Shown piece after piece: positions 6,291 to 52,970 of a DNA stretch of 64,000 nt (the first letter of the stretch is position 1; each line of letters opens with the position of its first letter). The notes beneath the pieces are model-generated. The model had not been told where the DNA came from. It made no database searches and saw only the letters and a program-made list of their open reading frames with translations. The position numbers and the translations under genes are program-made. Source of the stretch: Bacteriovoracia bacterium (lineage in GTDB: Bacteria; Bdellovibrionota; UBA1018; CAIPTA01); assembly GCA_050246755.1 (NCBI GenBank), contig JBFWVL010000004.1:1-64000 (forward strand), written 5' to 3'.

Positions 6291-6334
6291 TGGGCCGATA
6301 GTTATTTGATTTCAATGACTTGCCGATAGTTCCT

Positions 6335-6361
6335 TAAGGTTTTCCGCTCGCCTGCCGATAG
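6335..6361 (+). promoter_or_regulatory. sigma28 (FliA)-type promoter
   Basis: TAAGGTTT-N11-GCCGATAG; extra GCCGATAG copies at 6294 and 6322. Confidence 0.7.
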
Positions 6362-6366
6362 GTGGA

Positions 6367-6867
6367 GTGATGAATGCCTTTAAATATTCCATCGCCGTTG
6401 TGATTCCTATTCTCTGCTTTGCGTTTGGCATTTATTTCCAGTCGTATATGCCGGATTCCACCCGCGAGATCGCCTCCTTCGGGCTCGCCCAGGGAAGAAG
6501 CGTAGCGAACACCAAGGTGGACGTGAAGGTTTCTTCCGCGCTCCGCGATTGCCTCAACGATCAGGTGAAAGACAATAAGATGGCGCTCAATAAATCGGGC
6601 GTGGATGGCCGCAACTGGGCCATCGTGAGCGTGAATTGCATCGACGATAAAGCCAAGGCCCTCTACGATGCCGTGCAGGGTTACTCGAGCGAGCAGTACG
6701 TGCGCTACAGCGATGGGCGTCGTGGCGTGGGACGTTTCTTCGGCCGCCTTTATCCGCCTAGTCAGTGCGTGCGCGTGATCGCCCGCAAAGGTTCCGAGGC
6801 GAATTTTTATAGCTGCCGGATTTTCATCGATCTCGATTACGATCTCATCCAAAACCTGAAGCTCTAA
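6367..6867 (+). CDS. hypothetical exported/membrane-anchored protein
   Basis: N-terminal hydrophobic segment, 4 Cys in soluble part. Confidence 0.75.
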   Translation: MMNAFKYSIAVVIPILCFAFGIYFQSYMPDSTREIASFGLAQGRSVANTKVDVKVSSALRDCLNDQVKDNKMALNKSGVDGRNWAIVSVNCIDDKAKALYDAVQGYSSEQYVRYSDGRRGVGRFFGRLYPPSQCVRVIARKGSEANFYSCRIFIDLDYDLIQNLKL

Positions 6868-32564: not shown

Positions 32565-34949
32565 ATGGAACCCTACCTCCTCGGATTAAATGAACCCCAG
32601 CGCAAAGCGGCCCAGGCCACCGAAGGGCCCGTGATCGTGCTCGCCGGCGCGGGTTCCGGAAAAACAAAAATGCTGATCACGCGCGTGGCGCATTTGATCA
32701 AGCAGGGGGTGGACCCTTCCACGATTCTCGCGGTTACTTTCACGAACAAGGCCGCCGCCGAAATGAAAAAAAGGGTGGAAACCATCCTGCGAGAGATTCA
32801 TGCCGGCCGCCAGCATCACCAATGGGCCCAGCCCTGGATGGGTTTTTCCCACGTGCTGCCGGAAGTTTCCACCTTCCACTCTTTTTGCGTGAAGCTCCTA
32901 CGCAACGAGCTGTCCGCGCTCGGGTTCACGCGTCCTTTCGTGATCTACGACGACGACGACGTCTATTCTCTCATCAAGAAGGTGCTCGAAGAATTCGATA
33001 TCAATACCAAGAATGCGAATCCCAAGCGCTTTAAGGGCTTGATCGACCAGATGAAATGCCAAGCCATCGGTCCCGAGGAAGTGGATCCCGCGGATTTTTT
33101 CGGCCCGATCGGTGAGCAGCTCATCAAGGTATACCGCCGCTACCAGGAAGTTTTGCGCTCCAGCCAGGCCCTGGATTTCGGTGATCTCATCGTGGAGGCG
33201 TATAAACTGCTCCGCGATAATCCCGCGATCCTGGCTAAGTACCAGGAGCATTTCAAATATTTGATGGTCGACGAGTACCAGGATACGAACCGCGCCCAGT
33301 ACCTGCTCGTGAATATTTTGGCTAAGAAATACAAAAATATTTGCGTAGTGGGCGATGAAGACCAAAGTATTTACAAGTGGCGCGGCGCCGACATCAAAAA
33401 TATTTTGGACTTCCAAAAAGACTATCCCGAAGCGTTGATGGTGAAGCTCGAGCAGAATTACCGCTCTACCCAGACGATTATTTCGGCCGCTTCCGCGGTG
33501 ATTAAGAACAATAAGTCCCGCTACGATAAAACTCTCTGGACCGATAACGAGCCGGGAGACAAAATCCGCTGGGCCCAGTTGCCCGACGAACGCTCTGAGG
33601 CCGAGCACGTGGCGCGTGAGCTCACGAGCTGGCTGCGGGAGAATCCCGGAAGGTCTTTCGCCGACATCGCGATTTTCTATCGTTCTCACGCGCAGTCGCG
33701 GGCGCTCGAGGAAATCTTTCGCCGCCAGCGCGTAGCCTATAAAATCGTGGGCGGAGTAGGATTCTACGAGCGCCGCGAGATCAAGGATGCTTTGGCCTAC
33801 CTGCGGGTTCTGGTGAATCCCGATGATTCCGTTAGCCTGCTCCGGATCATTAACGTGCCCGCGCGCGGAATTGGAAAGACCACCCTCGACAAAGTGGAGC
33901 AATTCGCCACCAAGTATAAGCTTTCCTTTTATGCTGGCATGAAGAAGATGCTGGGCGGCTCCGAGGAAGCTGGTTCCTTGCCGCCGAGCGCCCAGAAAAA
34001 ATTAATCGAGTTCATGAAGCTCCTCGACGGCTTCCGTGCGCTCGCGCAGCGATCCTACGTGGGCGAGATGTTCCATCACATTCTCGACGCCACGGGATAC
34101 GTGAACGAGCTCAAGGCCGAAGACACCGATGAAGCGAAAGCCCGCATCCAAAACTTGGAAGAATTCGATACCGTGATCCAATTTTTCGAAGAGGATGCCA
34201 AACGCCGCGGGATGAAACCGGAAGAGGGGATGCTCCAAGGTTTCCTCAATCAAGTTACCCTGGAAGCTTCTTTGTTGGATAAGGGCGCGGAAGAGCCTAG
34301 TACCGGTTCGGTTTCGATGATGACCCTCCATTCTTCGAAGGGCCTCGAATTTCCGCTCGTGTTCCTCGTGGGCTGCGAAGAAGGAATTTTCCCTTCGAAA
34401 ATGGCGATGAGCGAGGAAGATTTCGATTCCGAAGCCATCGAAGAAGAGCGCCGTCTATGCTACGTGGGAATTACCCGCGCCATGGAACGGCTAGTGATGA
34501 CCAGCGCCAATATGCGCCGCATCTATGGCCAGATCCAGGTTTCTCCGCCTAGCCGTTTTCTCCTTGAGATCCCGGAACAATTCATCCAGCGCGATGTGAA
34601 GAAAGGGGACGCTTCCGTGGCTTCCCAGTTCAATGTGCGCACGGTTTGGGAATCGGAACGTTCCCGCGGCTTTCCTTCTTGGAAGGGAAAAGGCAAAACC
34701 GAGGGGGAGGGCGGCCGCAAATATGATTACGGGCATGAAGCCGCCGCGCCTACCTACGAAGTAAAGGCCGCCGCCGATGCCGAAGGTACCGAGATCAAAG
34801 TAGGGCAGAAAGTGAAGCATGCTTCCTATGGGGCCGGCACGGTGAAGCAGCTTGAAGGCTCAGAGTCGGATCGTAAGGTGACGATCGAGTTTAGTGGGCG
34901 CGTAACGAAGAAATTTTCGCTCAAGCACGTGCAGCTCGAACTGCAGTAG
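32565..34949 (+). CDS. pcrA: UvrD/PcrA DNA helicase
   Basis: AGAGSGKT, TFTNKAA, DEYQD, EERRLCYVGITRA; C-terminal Tudor-like domain. Confidence 0.93.
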   Translation: MEPYLLGLNEPQRKAAQATEGPVIVLAGAGSGKTKMLITRVAHLIKQGVDPSTILAVTFTNKAAAEMKKRVETILREIHAGRQHHQWAQPWMGFSHVLPEVSTFHSFCVKLLRNELSALGFTRPFVIYDDDDVYSLIKKVLEEFDINTKNANPKRFKGLIDQMKCQAIGPEEVDPADFFGPIGEQLIKVYRRYQEVLRSSQALDFGDLIVEAYKLLRDNPAILAKYQEHFKYLMVDEYQDTNRAQYLLVNILAKKYKNICVVGDEDQSIYKWRGADIKNILDFQKDYPEALMVKLEQNYRSTQTIISAASAVIKNNKSRYDKTLWTDNEPGDKIRWAQLPDERSEAEHVARELTSWLRENPGRSFADIAIFYRSHAQSRALEEIFRRQRVAYKIVGGVGFYERREIKDALAYLRVLVNPDDSVSLLRIINVPARGIGKTTLDKVEQFATKYKLSFYAGMKKMLGGSEEAGSLPPSAQKKLIEFMKLLDGFRALAQRSYVGEMFHHILDATGYVNELKAEDTDEAKARIQNLEEFDTVIQFFEEDAKRRGMKPEEGMLQGFLNQVTLEASLLDKGAEEPSTGSVSMMTLHSSKGLEFPLVFLVGCEEGIFPSKMAMSEEDFDSEAIEEERRLCYVGITRAMERLVMTSANMRRIYGQIQVSPPSRFLLEIPEQFIQRDVKKGDASVASQFNVRTVWESERSRGFPSWKGKGKTEGEGGRKYDYGHEAAAPTYEVKAAADAEGTEIKVGQKVKHASYGAGTVKQLEGSESDRKVTIEFSGRVTKKFSLKHVQLELQ

Positions 34950-49971: not shown

Positions 49972-49999
49972 TAAAGAATTTGCCCTAATCCACCGATAC
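49972..49999 (+). promoter_or_regulatory. sigma28-like promoter
   Basis: TAAAG...ACCGATAC, spacing one base longer than canonical. Confidence 0.5.
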
Positions 50000-50005
50000 G
50001 GCTTA

Positions 50006-51715
50006 GTGGTGATTACTTTTCTATTACTCCTGATTGCTCTGCCCGCTTTGGCGTCGAAGCCGAATCTCGCCGGTCCCGCCGCGCACCTGAAATTCGGCGA
50101 CACCTGCGAACGTCTCTATTTGGAAATCGAGAGCAAAGGGCGAAAGGGCTACGAAAAGGGCAAGCGTATCCGCGAGCGCTACGCGGAATTCCGTGGAATC
50201 AGCGACACAGACAATGAGAAATTTCTTCAGCGCGCGGTGGCCGCCAATCGCGGTGAAAAAACCGATGCACGGATTTTTCTCGATATCGAGAATGCCGTGC
50301 TCAAGGACCTCAACGATAAGGTAATTGAAGATCGAGAGCTCGTGACCGCGCTCACTAACCTGCATAAAGACGTAGTGTGGTCGGAAATTTCTTCTGATCC
50401 GGTTCTGGCCGCCGCGATGCTCGATAAGTATTCCGATTTTAAATCGCTGCGATTTTCTTTTAAGTCGGATGACCGCGAAATCCAGGCGCGCGCGTCGGCG
50501 CTGCTTTCCCGCATAAATAAAAAATATAGTGAATACCTAGATGATCTTTCCGAGGAGAACGGCTGGAAGGAAAAAGTGAAGGGCCTGAGCGCGGATAGCC
50601 GGAACTGGTACCACGCGGGGGTGGGGGCCACGCCCGACCAGGCCGGAGTGGCCACGCGTTTCTCCCGTGATAATCTTAGCCCAAAAAATGTGGCCGTACT
50701 CCGCCACTTCGATGAAGCCGCCGCCACGCTGCAACAGGCCGCCTACAACGCTGGCCGTTTTCAAAAGTGGGTGGCCAAGCGCTATGCTGGGCTGCCGGGA
50801 TTTTTAGTGAAATCCGAAAGCGGCGCGGAGGTTCTTTCCGCCGAAACCATCGAGGCCATCAAGAAGGCCATTCCTCGCTACCACGAAGATATGACCGATG
50901 CTGTGGCGCGGGCCCTAAGCGCGAGATTTAGGCTGAAGTTCAGCGCGGACGATGCCAAGGGGCTGCGGAGCTATCTTGGGCTCGTGGATCAGTTTTCCCC
51001 GGGGCTCTTGCAGGCCAAGCGCGAAGTGATCGATATGGGTGTGGCGGCGCGCGGTGTGATTTCGGCAGATTTTAAGGGGCAGAACGCGAGAAATATCCAG
51101 GAGACGATGAAGGCGCTGGCAGATACGGAAGGTCAGCATATCAAAATCCGTCTTCAGGCCGTCCGTGAGGGCGAGATTCGCGCTACCGCGGCGCTCGAGG
51201 CGAAGAAGGCAAGCTTCCAGCGTGCAATGCGACGCTTCGCCGCGGAGCTGGAAGCGCAAAAAATTCTTTCGCCGGCCGCAGGCAAGAAGCTCAAAGCCCG
51301 CTTCACGGGGGACGACGGCGTGATGTTCGTGCCGTTCGAACTAAATCCGGAAGCTCGGGCGATGGCCCAGAAGATTCTTCTGGAAGAAATGGACGCCGAA
51401 GATATCCGTTTGGCCTTCGTGCAGTTCGATAAGCCGGGGGCGGAAATTGCAGCCGAGGCGCGATCCGGCTGGATCGTGCAGGCCGAGAGTTTAGAGAAGA
51501 AATTACGCGTGGGCCTCATCGAAAAGATGAACCGCAGGAGCTTGAACGACCTGCAGATCGGCGTGTCGATGGTGCCGGATGCCGCCGGTAAAGGCGTGGT
51601 GGAGCTGCAGCTGCTTCGTAAGGGCGAGAGAATCGTATCGGTTGAGGAAGAGAAAATTATTTTAGAGATGGCGAGGGCGTTCGGATATAACGCGAAGATT
51701 ATGGGCATGCCGTGA
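50006..51715 (+). CDS. secreted hypothetical protein with two GGDEF/Palm-like regions
   Basis: signal peptide; IFLDIEN..LKDLND; ISADF...RFTGDDG. Confidence 0.75.
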   Translation: MVITFLLLLIALPALASKPNLAGPAAHLKFGDTCERLYLEIESKGRKGYEKGKRIRERYAEFRGISDTDNEKFLQRAVAANRGEKTDARIFLDIENAVLKDLNDKVIEDRELVTALTNLHKDVVWSEISSDPVLAAAMLDKYSDFKSLRFSFKSDDREIQARASALLSRINKKYSEYLDDLSEENGWKEKVKGLSADSRNWYHAGVGATPDQAGVATRFSRDNLSPKNVAVLRHFDEAAATLQQAAYNAGRFQKWVAKRYAGLPGFLVKSESGAEVLSAETIEAIKKAIPRYHEDMTDAVARALSARFRLKFSADDAKGLRSYLGLVDQFSPGLLQAKREVIDMGVAARGVISADFKGQNARNIQETMKALADTEGQHIKIRLQAVREGEIRATAALEAKKASFQRAMRRFAAELEAQKILSPAAGKKLKARFTGDDGVMFVPFELNPEARAMAQKILLEEMDAEDIRLAFVQFDKPGAEIAAEARSGWIVQAESLEKKLRVGLIEKMNRRSLNDLQIGVSMVPDAAGKGVVELQLLRKGERIVSVEEEKIILEMARAFGYNAKIMGMP

Positions 51716-52970
51716 TTGCACGGCTCGTTCCGTTAGAGCTTTCCACTTTCGCTTCACCCGTGCGTTGGAGATCGAAACGCGAAAAGCGAAATTGCTGGTG
51801 CTCTTCTTTGAGCAACGTCGCGTGGGCTGAAGGCTGTAAGTAGCGATTGAAGCTCATGCGGACCGAAAATACGGGCAAGGTCGCTTCGGAAAGCGCGGGG
51901 TCCGTGCCCCCCGAGTTTAGGATGCAATGGGGCTGAAGGGTTTCGATGCGATCGAGGGAGCGCTTTTCCAGTATCGTGCGTTCCCAGGAAAAGTCCGAGA
52001 TTTGCCGCAGGTAAGGCGCGAGCAATTTTCCGGTTTCGGCTTGTAGCTCGGCTGACTCTAAAAAGTCGCTGAGCCTGGGGCGTTCGATATCTTCCTGGTG
52101 AAACGGAACGCATGATGGATCGATTCTTCCGTCGGGGGAAAGGCAGCGCAGGCTGGTCCCTAACACCATTTTCCCAAACTCCCTTTCATCTGGCTTGAGG
52201 TAGGGGAGCCAGGCGTTGTTCTGGGCTTCGCTGAGATTCAGCGCGGCCTGAATGAGGCCCACGGCATTTCCGTTTTTATCGAGGAGGGGGGATCCGGAAT
52301 TCCCGGGTGCCGACACGCAGCCGCCGCCCACGAAAATAGAGTCGGATTCATTTCGGTAAAGAGGAAAAGCGTAAGAATTGCCCACGGCTTCACAGGTGTC
52401 CTTCATGATCTCGCCGGATGGTTTGTTGGGCTGGCCGCGCACGGGATTCACTTTGTAGGCGGTATAGCTCTCGCCTGGAATCACGCCCTGCTTATTCATG
52501 GCGAACGGAATTCGCTTCGTGCTCTTACTCAAGCGAATGAGGGCCAGGTCCGGGGAAAAGTCATTGGGCCTCTCGCTTACGGTGAGGAGCGTTTTGCAGG
52601 AAATGCTTTCGGTTTGAAATTCACCCGAAGACGGTAACTCGAGCTTTACGCGTTCGGCGCAGAGATCGGGCATTAATTTTACGGCGGAGGGGATGCAGTG
52701 GGAATTCGTGGCCGCGAGATCTTCGCCTACGAGGAAAGCGGTGCAGGTGAAGATATCTGCGCCTTGTTGGGCCGTGAGCATTCCCACCGAACTCGGGCAG
52801 TTATCGCTGTCGGTGCAACGAACGCGCGCGGTTTTGGCCAAGGTATTCGCTTCGCCCTCATTTAGGACGTGAATAGTGCGCACGAGGCTTTGCGCCGGCG
52901 AATCTTCGCGTTGTTTGCTGCAGCCGAGGAGGGCTAGGAGCAGGAGTGAAATGGCGAAAGAGCGGTACAT
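51699..52970 (-). CDS. trypsin-like serine protease lipoprotein
   Basis: LLGC lipobox; TNSHC, DLALI, GNSGSP triad. Confidence 0.9.
   Translation of the reverse strand: MYRSFAISLLLLALLGCSKQREDSPAQSLVRTIHVLNEGEANTLAKTARVRCTDSDNCPSSVGMLTAQQGADIFTCTAFLVGEDLAATNSHCIPSAVKLMPDLCAERVKLELPSSGEFQTESISCKTLLTVSERPNDFSPDLALIRLSKSTKRIPFAMNKQGVIPGESYTAYKVNPVRGQPNKPSGEIMKDTCEAVGNSYAFPLYRNESDSIFVGGGCVSAPGNSGSPLLDKNGNAVGLIQAALNLSEAQNNAWLPYLKPDEREFGKMVLGTSLRCLSPDGRIDPSCVPFHQEDIERPRLSDFLESAELQAETGKLLAPYLRQISDFSWERTILEKRSLDRIETLQPHCILNSGGTDPALSEATLPVFSVRMSFNRYLQPSAHATLLKEEHQQFRFSRFDLQRTGEAKVESSNGTSRAITACP

Follow-up and report, generated by a model that had tools for sequence, protein, structure and literature searches.

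A 64,000-nucleotide stretch of the genome of a Bacteriovoracia bacterium (positions 1 to 64,000 of contig JBFWVL010000004.1, assembly GCA_050246755.1; hereafter the window) carries a gene for a 569-amino-acid (aa) protein in which a putative Sec-type signal peptide is followed by two halves, each of which is predicted to fold as a palm domain. The protein and its relatives, none of which has a named function, are most aptly regarded as a new family of exported enzymes with tandem palms. We propose that the window protein is an exported enzyme of ~61 kDa in which the two palms form a composite site for nucleoside triphosphates (NTPs), and that it may act in or at the prey cell, a proposal to which we would give about an even chance of being right.

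Signal peptide, predicted fold and conserved residues

The open reading frame (ORF) is real, runs from a GTG start to a stop codon, and has no second copy in its genome, which is 95.7% complete and comprises 3.55 Mb on 10 contigs. A first-pass annotation, made from the sequence letters only, had placed the beginning of the feature at 49972, which is the first base of a -35 promoter box, the gene itself starting at 50006. All peptide strings quoted in that annotation occur in the 569-aa translation, namely RIFLDIENAVLKDLND, KYSDFKS and HAGVGATPDQA in the first region, and ISADFKGQNA (encoded at 51059-51088) and RFTGDDGVM (encoded at 51299-51325) in the second. The mature protein is basic (pI 9.1) and contains one Cys.

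The N-terminus reads MVITFLLLLIALPALAS and then KPNLAG, with an A-x-A site. Most of 25 close relatives, as judged by eye, are built alike: a short N-region precedes a hydrophobic core, which is followed by A-x-A. A crude rule (an uncharged hydrophobic stretch of 10 aa within the first 32 aa) was satisfied by 55 of the 79 stand-alone and 25 of the 63 fused family representatives that start with M, and most of 16 giant family members likewise begin, as judged by eye, with a signal-peptide-like N-terminus. In the structural model described below, the helix of the signal peptide (residues 2-16) has a low predicted local distance difference test score (pLDDT 55-68). We conclude that the family carries a conserved, predicted Sec-type signal peptide; the signal peptide claimed in the first-pass annotation is borne out by the N-terminus of the window protein, its A-x-A site and the similar N-termini of its relatives. 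In Bdellovibrio bacteriovorus, native Sec signal peptides alone are reported to suffice for the release of a reporter to the culture medium (PMC12622784).

The Bdellovibrio homologue Bd1312 is annotated as a hypothetical protein (NC_005363, 1239080..1241359), while the family gene spans 1238960-1241359, so that the annotated start sits 120 nucleotides (nt) inside the longest ORF. An upstream in-frame TTG start would give Bd1312 a hydrophobic, signal-peptide-like N-terminus, LGLHIIVIILTIVWAGPGKA, which the annotated start removes.

An AlphaFold2 model built on an alignment of 76 sequences has a mean pLDDT of 93.9 and a predicted template modelling score of 0.89, with 501 of the 569 residues at a pLDDT of at least 90, and the five models range from 93.1 to 93.9. 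Secondary structure assigned by DSSP places in the first half strand 90-96, helices within 99-137, strands 138-143 and 147-152, helix 157-184, strand 202-207 and helix 210-222, and in the second half strand 350-356, helices within 359-428, strands 432-434 and 437-442, helix 448-461, strand 467-473 and helix 483-504, after which the chain continues with strands 516-523 and 531-538, helix 546-558 and strand 563-565. Both halves therefore show the order beta1-alpha-beta2-beta3-alpha-beta4, which is that of a palm domain. The hairpin turn of the first half, S143-D144-F145-K146, has no acidic pair; in the second half, D355 lies in strand 350-356, and G435-D436-D437 lies between strands 432-434 and 437-442. 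The tandem palm fold had been called by eye in the first-pass annotation, as had the degeneracy of the first palm and the combination of a strand Asp with a GDD hairpin in the second, and the confident model agrees with the call on each of these points.

Comparison of the model with the PDB by Foldseek points to the same kind of fold. Among the best 50 matches, 33 were type III CRISPR or Cmr2 (Cas10) entries and 12 were human soluble adenylyl cyclase; the others were two Thg1 entries, one mCpol, one viral RNA-dependent RNA polymerase (RdRp) and one insulin-degrading enzyme, the last being the sole match in this set that does not fit a palm reading. Ranks 1-13 were all type III CRISPR proteins (Cas10/Csm1/Cmr2), with E-values from 9.3e-4 to 8e-3, probabilities of 0.41-0.87, template modelling (TM) scores of 0.19-0.25 and alignments of 484-596 columns. 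The match to mCpol (9mnr) had a probability of 1.00 and a TM-score by target of 0.62, at a root-mean-square deviation (rmsd) of 4.7 A over 157 columns. The comparison proposed in the first-pass annotation thus led to Cas10 at the first 13 ranks, with class III cyclase and Thg1 also in the top 50.

Conservation was assessed on family representatives sharing at most 50% mutual identity, 158 of 166 of which cover profile positions 110-500 (87 stand-alone and 71 fused). Seven residues, K146, W201, D355, D436, D437, R468 and K498, are identical in all 158, and N103 and G435 are identical in 157. The conserved residues of the first half are N70, E95, K100, N103, D104, Y142, D144, K146, W201, R218 and R221, and the residue before G435-D436-D437 is S, T or C across the family. 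The motif strings are conserved far beyond chance. One residue prevails in at least 85% of the sequences in 35 columns, none of which is His or Cys; because of this, the conservation pattern fits an enzyme that would use carboxylates, metal ions and basic residues. Mean-field direct coupling analysis of the same 158 sequences was dominated by gap artefacts and was uninformative. The positions of the features are collected in Table 1.

Table 1. Features of the tandem-palm gene and its promoter in the window
Feature	Position	Strand	Basis
-35 box TAAAG of a sigma-28 (FliA)-type promoter	49972..49976	+	exact match to T[TA]AAG-N16-CCGATA
-10 box CCGATA, ending 7 nt upstream of the GTG start	49993..49998	+	pattern match
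ORF of the exported tandem-palm protein, 569 aa + stop	50006..51715	+	translation; AlphaFold2 model, pLDDT 93.9
Putative Sec-type signal peptide, residues 1-17	50006..50056	+	A-L-A then S; cleavage after A16 or S17, by eye
First palm-like half, residues 60-262, degenerate, hairpin without acidic pair	50183..50791	+	DSSP order, conservation, weak hhalign match to GGDEF
Second palm-like half, residues 335-569, invariant acidic triad	51008..51712	+	DSSP order, conservation
D355 codon, strand 1 of the second half, proposed metal ligand	51068..51070	+	conservation, model
G435-D436-D437 codons, turn of the beta2-beta3 hairpin, proposed catalytic GDD	51308..51316	+	conservation, model

Distribution of the family and comparison with known palm proteins

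By a word-indexed search, 27 sequences with 36-60% identity were retrieved at E<=1e-3. When a profile was run against 1.84 billion cluster representatives, 560 proteins passed the same cut-off, of which 518 reached 1e-10 and 403 reached 1e-30. Among species genomes, a relative is encoded in 25 of 91 pattern-matching stretches; 21 of these 25 records are titled as Bdellovibrionales, Oligoflexia, Bacteriovoracia/-aceae, Halobacteriovoraceae or Pseudobdellovibrionaceae, and the remaining four as "bacterium" (two) or "Pseudomonadota bacterium" (two). All records with an organism name come from Bdellovibrionota. Of 301 sampled Bdellovibrionota genomes, 95 have a match (87 of the 258 good-quality ones), mostly as one copy. 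Within the genus of the window organism, the gene stands beside the same acyl-CoA ligase gene in two genomes (G001, G005) and is missing between the ligase and protease genes in two others (G002, G004). The distribution is patchy, and the gene behaves as an accessory gene. No relative was found in viral contigs.

Among 26 loci compared, only the closest relative (L001) shares local gene order with the window. The gene that follows in the window is convergent (51699-52970, minus strand) and shares 17 nt with the 3' end of the tandem-palm gene. Its product is a trypsin-like protein (PF13365/PF00089) of 423 aa, whose N-terminus (LLGCS) is like that of a lipoprotein; a gene of this kind is also the neighbour in L001.

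The palm-bearing module, ~500 aa long, occurs either as a stand-alone protein or inside giant exported proteins. In addition to the 87 stand-alone forms, the 158 representatives comprise 61 with an N-terminal extension of more than 150 aa, nine extended on both sides and one extended at the C-terminus, and 12 representatives are at least 1500 aa long. Pfam domains were recognised in three of 18 long members, which come from Oligoflexia and Bdellovibrionota: P0033 has a Fic domain together with a ParB-like nuclease domain, P0038 a cytidylyltransferase-like domain, and P0043 RamC_N. When the members of a FastTree tree were labelled as stand-alone, mid or giant, 24 changes were counted in total, and the starred branches force at least six for the giants. 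On this tree the module would have moved between stand-alone and giant multidomain proteins at least six times, and the window protein falls among 26 stand-alone forms, adjoining the giants P0030 and P0032. A comparison of the giants with the genome of the window matched only the module itself, plus one compositional coiled-coil match. Four giants (P0171, P0178, P0038 and P0034; 2531-4416 aa), out of 85 family proteins of at least 700 aa, end in ...T-A/L-x-C-L-[KG]-L, a C-terminal Cys-x-x-L that resembles a prenylation box.

Searches of Pfam, NCBIfam, PHROGs, PADLOC and the PDB by sequence or profile, using the whole protein and each half, returned only noise. The best match, a nerve mini-haemoglobin (E 0.027, on one helix), was judged to be due to chance. 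Profile searches with single halves returned four fragments of the same family or nothing, the ESM Atlas gave a poor model of the protein (pLDDT 0.44) and no usable matches, and an Rfam scan around the gene found nothing. In the literature, Bd1312 appeared only in unrelated papers, and, as judged by the listing of hits, neither an exported form of a palm, GGDEF or Cas10 protein nor anything relevant on secreted Bdellovibrio nucleotidyltransferases acting on prey was found.

Like Cas10 (Csm1/Cmr2), which is the subunit that synthesises cyclic oligoadenylate in type III CRISPR-Cas complexes, the tandem-palm protein has two palms per chain, the first of them degenerate and the second with a strand-1 Asp and a G-D-D hairpin. 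Unlike Cas10, the family carries a signal peptide, has no HD domain (no HD match in Pfam) and no zinc finger, since no His or Cys is conserved, and its hairpin is [S/T/C]GDD rather than GGDD; the TM-scores are also low. None of 76 members matched a Cas10 or mCpol model in PADLOC at E<=10. As the first-pass annotation had stated, there are no CRISPR genes nearby: the window contains no direct-repeat array of at least 24 nt with copies within 120 nt, and no Cas model was matched by its 40 ORFs of at least 220 aa, the size range scanned. The Cas10-style character claimed in that annotation holds for the two-palm layout, as seen in the model and in Foldseek. It does not extend to family membership: because there is no HD domain, no conserved His or Cys, no set of Csm/Cmr genes or array and no match to the Cas10 hidden Markov models, the tandem-palm protein is not a member of the Cas10 family.

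Elsewhere in the window, a gene at 32565-34949 (plus strand) encodes a 794-aa UvrD-like helicase with matches in PADLOC to two helicase models, GajB and the helicase portion of DRT. Since no partner defence genes were detected among the large ORFs, its role is probably that of a housekeeping helicase of the UvrD/PcrA type.

The best single-domain match is mCpol (minimal CRISPR polymerase), the OptS protein of the Panoptes system (PDB 9mnr). It resembles the tandem-palm protein in being a Cas10-type palm that works without CRISPR. Encoded in a defence operon, mCpol is a small cytoplasmic protein with one palm (PMC12657218), and its chain has 119 residues; the tandem-palm protein, by contrast, has two palms, is predicted to be exported and has no conserved partner gene.

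Soluble adenylyl cyclase and the C1-C2 pairs of class III cyclases share with the tandem-palm protein the use of tandem palms, which in the latter too would form one asymmetric site with the metal Asp on one domain. The class III consensus F-x-D-x-x-G-F-T also has a counterpart in D-x-x-G after strand 1 (D355, G358), and the Asp positions fit in the model. However, there is no match to PF00211, hhalign gives probabilities of 0.2-0.5%, and the second half of the tandem-palm protein has two long helices inserted between strand 1 and the hairpin.

With GGDEF domains (PF00990) the likeness lies in the palm fold and in the first half, which aligns with the N-terminal 65 GGDEF positions, pairing D-N-x-x-F with L-T-x-L-x-N and F-D-x-E-N-A-x-L-K-x-L-N-D with D-x-D-x-F-K-x-x-N-D. 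In hhalign, the first half against 14 GGDEF domains gave P 0.006 over 53 columns, which is about equal to the positive control, GGDEF against class III cyclase (P 0.0044). By contrast, there is no GG[DE]EF motif, the hairpins being Y-S-D-F-K and S-G-D-D-G, and no PF00990 match was found in 76 members at E<=10. GGDEF enzymes are cytoplasmic homodimers of single palms, and three ordinary GGDEF genes lie elsewhere in the same genome. A GGDEF domain was found in all 31 relatives searched. The genome of the window has no EAL domain at E<=1e-20, and EAL domains are rare in the class, with four of 41 genomes, and occur, at E<=1e-40, in 85 of 401 genomes of the phylum.

Exported toxins that synthesise nucleotides are known, such as the (p)ppApp synthetase Tas1, delivered by type VI secretion, and the cyclases ExoY and CyaA, all of which use the NTP pool of the victim. 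The tandem-palm protein would be like them in principle, as an exported enzyme acting on a victim's NTPs, although their folds and secretion systems are different.

A sigma-28-type promoter at the start codon

The sigma-28-like promoter reported in the first-pass annotation is indeed present, as an exact TAAAG-N16-CCGATA whose -10 box lies just before the start codon (Table 1). The attack-phase consensus of B. bacteriovorus, TTAAG-N16-CCGATA, was found at 92 of 140 mapped promoters and assigned to FliA (PMC3627812). The window contains two matches to T[TA]AAG-N16-CCGATA where 0.04 would be expected, a count that none of 100 shuffles reached, and in the whole genome the slightly wider pattern T[TA]AAG-N16-CCGA[TA]A has 22 matches, compared with 4, 6 and 4 in three shuffles. 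An ORF of at least 80 aa begins within 200 nt of 20 of these 22 matches, and for 10 of these ORFs the distance from the -10 box to the start codon is 6-9 nt. Eight such promoter-at-start genes were scanned; five encode CheW, a trypsin-like protease, a YkuD_2 L,D-transpeptidase-like protein, a HEAT-repeat lipoprotein and a DUF4423 protein, and three have no Pfam match. The genome contains two FliA_WhiG sigma genes above the family cut-off.

Among 40 distinct family genes, with starts chosen by signal peptide, CCGA[TA]A ends 3-25 nt before the start in 11 and at 7-8 nt in nine, the background for this box near a start being 23 of 316 ORFs. When 61 genomes of the phylum were searched for the promoter with an ATG behind it, a distance of 6-8 nt gave 99 matches in 39 genomes (backwards control, 2) and one of 12-14 nt gave 27 matches in 19 genomes (control, 1). 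Judging from these spacings, the tandem-palm mRNA probably has no leader. Sigma-28-type promoters in Bdellovibrionota often abut the start codon, 6-9 nt after CCGATA, and such mRNAs would also be leaderless; a literature search on leaderless transcripts in Bdellovibrio yielded nothing on the topic, as judged by title. The second exact promoter in the window lies at 6334-6360, and 6 nt after it a GTG opens an ORF (6367-6864, plus strand) for a 166-aa protein with a hydrophobic N-terminus and no Pfam match.

Bd1312 is the sole homologue for which expression data were found, and attack-phase-specific expression is not seen there. It is a distant homologue, with ~29-30% identity per half (measured for its close relatives L071 and L072) and a Cys-rich N-terminal extension.

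Proposed function, alternatives and significance

What we propose for the reaction, for the site shared by the two palms and for where and on what the enzyme acts is as follows. The chain would hold two ferredoxin-like palms in the layout of Cas10 and soluble adenylyl cyclase. D355, D436 and D437 would together hold two divalent metal ions, and R468 and K498 would hold the triphosphate. With N103, K146, R218 and R221 supplied by the first palm, the site would be a composite one, as it is in Cas10 or the C1-C2 cyclases. It is plausible that the first palm binds an acceptor or second nucleotide and that the second palm does the chemistry, through which NTPs would be joined or cyclised. Transcription probably begins at or beside the start codon, driven by a sigma-28 (FliA) promoter like those of attack-phase genes in Bdellovibrio, and the exported enzyme would meet NTPs only outside the cytoplasm of the producer, most plausibly in or at a prey cell. 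The periplasm has no NTP pool. We infer passage beyond the periplasm and action in prey because of this, and because of the predicted export, the patchy distribution of an accessory gene and the presence of the module in giant exported proteins, one of which combines it with Fic and nuclease-like domains.

Several results weigh against this proposal. The Foldseek scores are weak, with a single match at E<=0.001 (the best, at 9.3e-4) and TM-scores by query of 0.14-0.25, and over the long alignments (450-600 columns) the rmsd is 20-24 A; therefore, the kind and order of the predicted domains agree with Cas10, but their relative placement may differ. The matches to mCpol and Thg1 are not attributable to either half, as Foldseek listed no aligned ranges. 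None of the sequence methods ties the second half to a palm family (hhalign probability 0.2% against GGDEF and 0.5% against cyclase), and a comparison of the two halves with each other detected no repeat (probability 0.4%). These hhalign runs, made without predicted secondary structure, have little power by reversed and block-shuffled controls, since block shuffles match the true GGDEF/cyclase pair in 3 of 40 cases and the pairing of the first half with GGDEF in 6 of 40. Pfam, NCBIfam and PADLOC gave no recurrent match on 76 members, and the 26 loci have no neighbouring gene in common that might, for example, confer immunity. Of the 11 distinct family promoters whose -10 box is close to the start, only those of the window, L001 and L065 have a good -35 box as well. 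Further, Bd1312 is marked "Silent", with RPKM values (reads per kilobase per million mapped reads) of 1.3 for attack phase and 21.3 for 3 h of growth (PMC3627812, Table S1).

A more specific form of the proposal, which we regard as unlikely, is that an exported Cas10-like cyclase, both free and as a module of giant proteins, turns prey NTPs, inside or at the prey, into cyclic or linear oligonucleotides, and so either drains the pool or falsely triggers the suicide effectors of the prey, i.e. those of cyclic oligonucleotide-based antiphage signalling systems (CBASS) or the ancillary nucleases of type III CRISPR. If so, predators would have made a weapon out of an enzyme of immune signalling.

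Alternatively, the tandem-palm fold may be right and the protein may work in the periplasm or at the surface of the producer, as part of a sigma-28 programme of motility, chemotaxis and surface functions, where it might transfer nucleotidyl or phosphoryl groups onto an envelope component or bind a nucleotide-like ligand. The same promoter class drives CheW and envelope or periplasmic proteins in this genome, a Sec signal is the only secretion signal seen, Bd1312 is nearly silent in both sampled phases, and an immunity-like neighbour is not conserved, all of which speak for such a role. However, an NTP-using enzyme would find no NTP pool in the periplasm, the patchy distribution and the loss within the genus speak against a core envelope role, and the module recurs in giant exported proteins beside Fic and nuclease-like domains. 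We give this alternative a minor, though real, chance.

It is also conceivable, if with only a small chance, that the protein is a template-independent or primed nucleotidyltransferase, Thg1-like or polymerase-like, which acts on a target nucleic acid or protein and makes no cyclic product. The presence of Thg1 (probability 0.92-0.93) and of a viral RdRp in the Foldseek top 50, the likeness of the F-x-GDD-G hairpin to polymerase motif C and the basic character of the mature protein would suit such an activity, but 45 of the 50 best matches are two-palm cyclases, with Thg1 and RdRp at ranks 42-49, and Pfam recognised no fingers, thumb or other nucleic-acid-binding domain.

Very improbable, finally, is a superficial palm likeness hiding another metal-dependent hydrolase in the second half, for example an EAL-like phosphodiesterase (PF00563) behind a GGDEF-like first half, as might be suggested by S-x-D, DD, R and A-E-x-x-E-K at EAL-like spacings (by eye), by the commonness of GGDEF-EAL pairing and by the weak Foldseek E-values and TM-scores; we rejected an EAL identity, since hhalign scores against 15-30 EAL domains (13.3-16.4) fell below those of reversed controls (15.7-17.8) at every setting, the EAL glutamates have no counterpart conserved in at least 85% of sequences, the model has the beta-hairpin order of a palm and not a beta/alpha barrel, and no EAL entry is among the Foldseek top 50.

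Cas10, mCpol, GGDEF proteins and class III cyclases are palm-domain cyclases known as cytoplasmic signalling enzymes. The family described here is large and unnamed, and combines the layout of Cas10 with a predicted signal peptide, with no CRISPR genes alongside, in a phylum of bacterial predators; it points to nucleotide synthesis being used between bacteria in an extracellular or trans-kingdom-style way. The family also shows that, in Oligoflexia and Bdellovibrionota, giant exported proteins are strings of enzyme modules, of which the tandem-palm module is one. For Bdellovibrio research, Bd1312 and its relatives are a concrete uncharacterised candidate with obvious predicted catalytic residues. 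Should the enzyme make a cyclic oligonucleotide, predation would be tied, through this family, to those immune pathways of the prey that depend on cyclic nucleotides.

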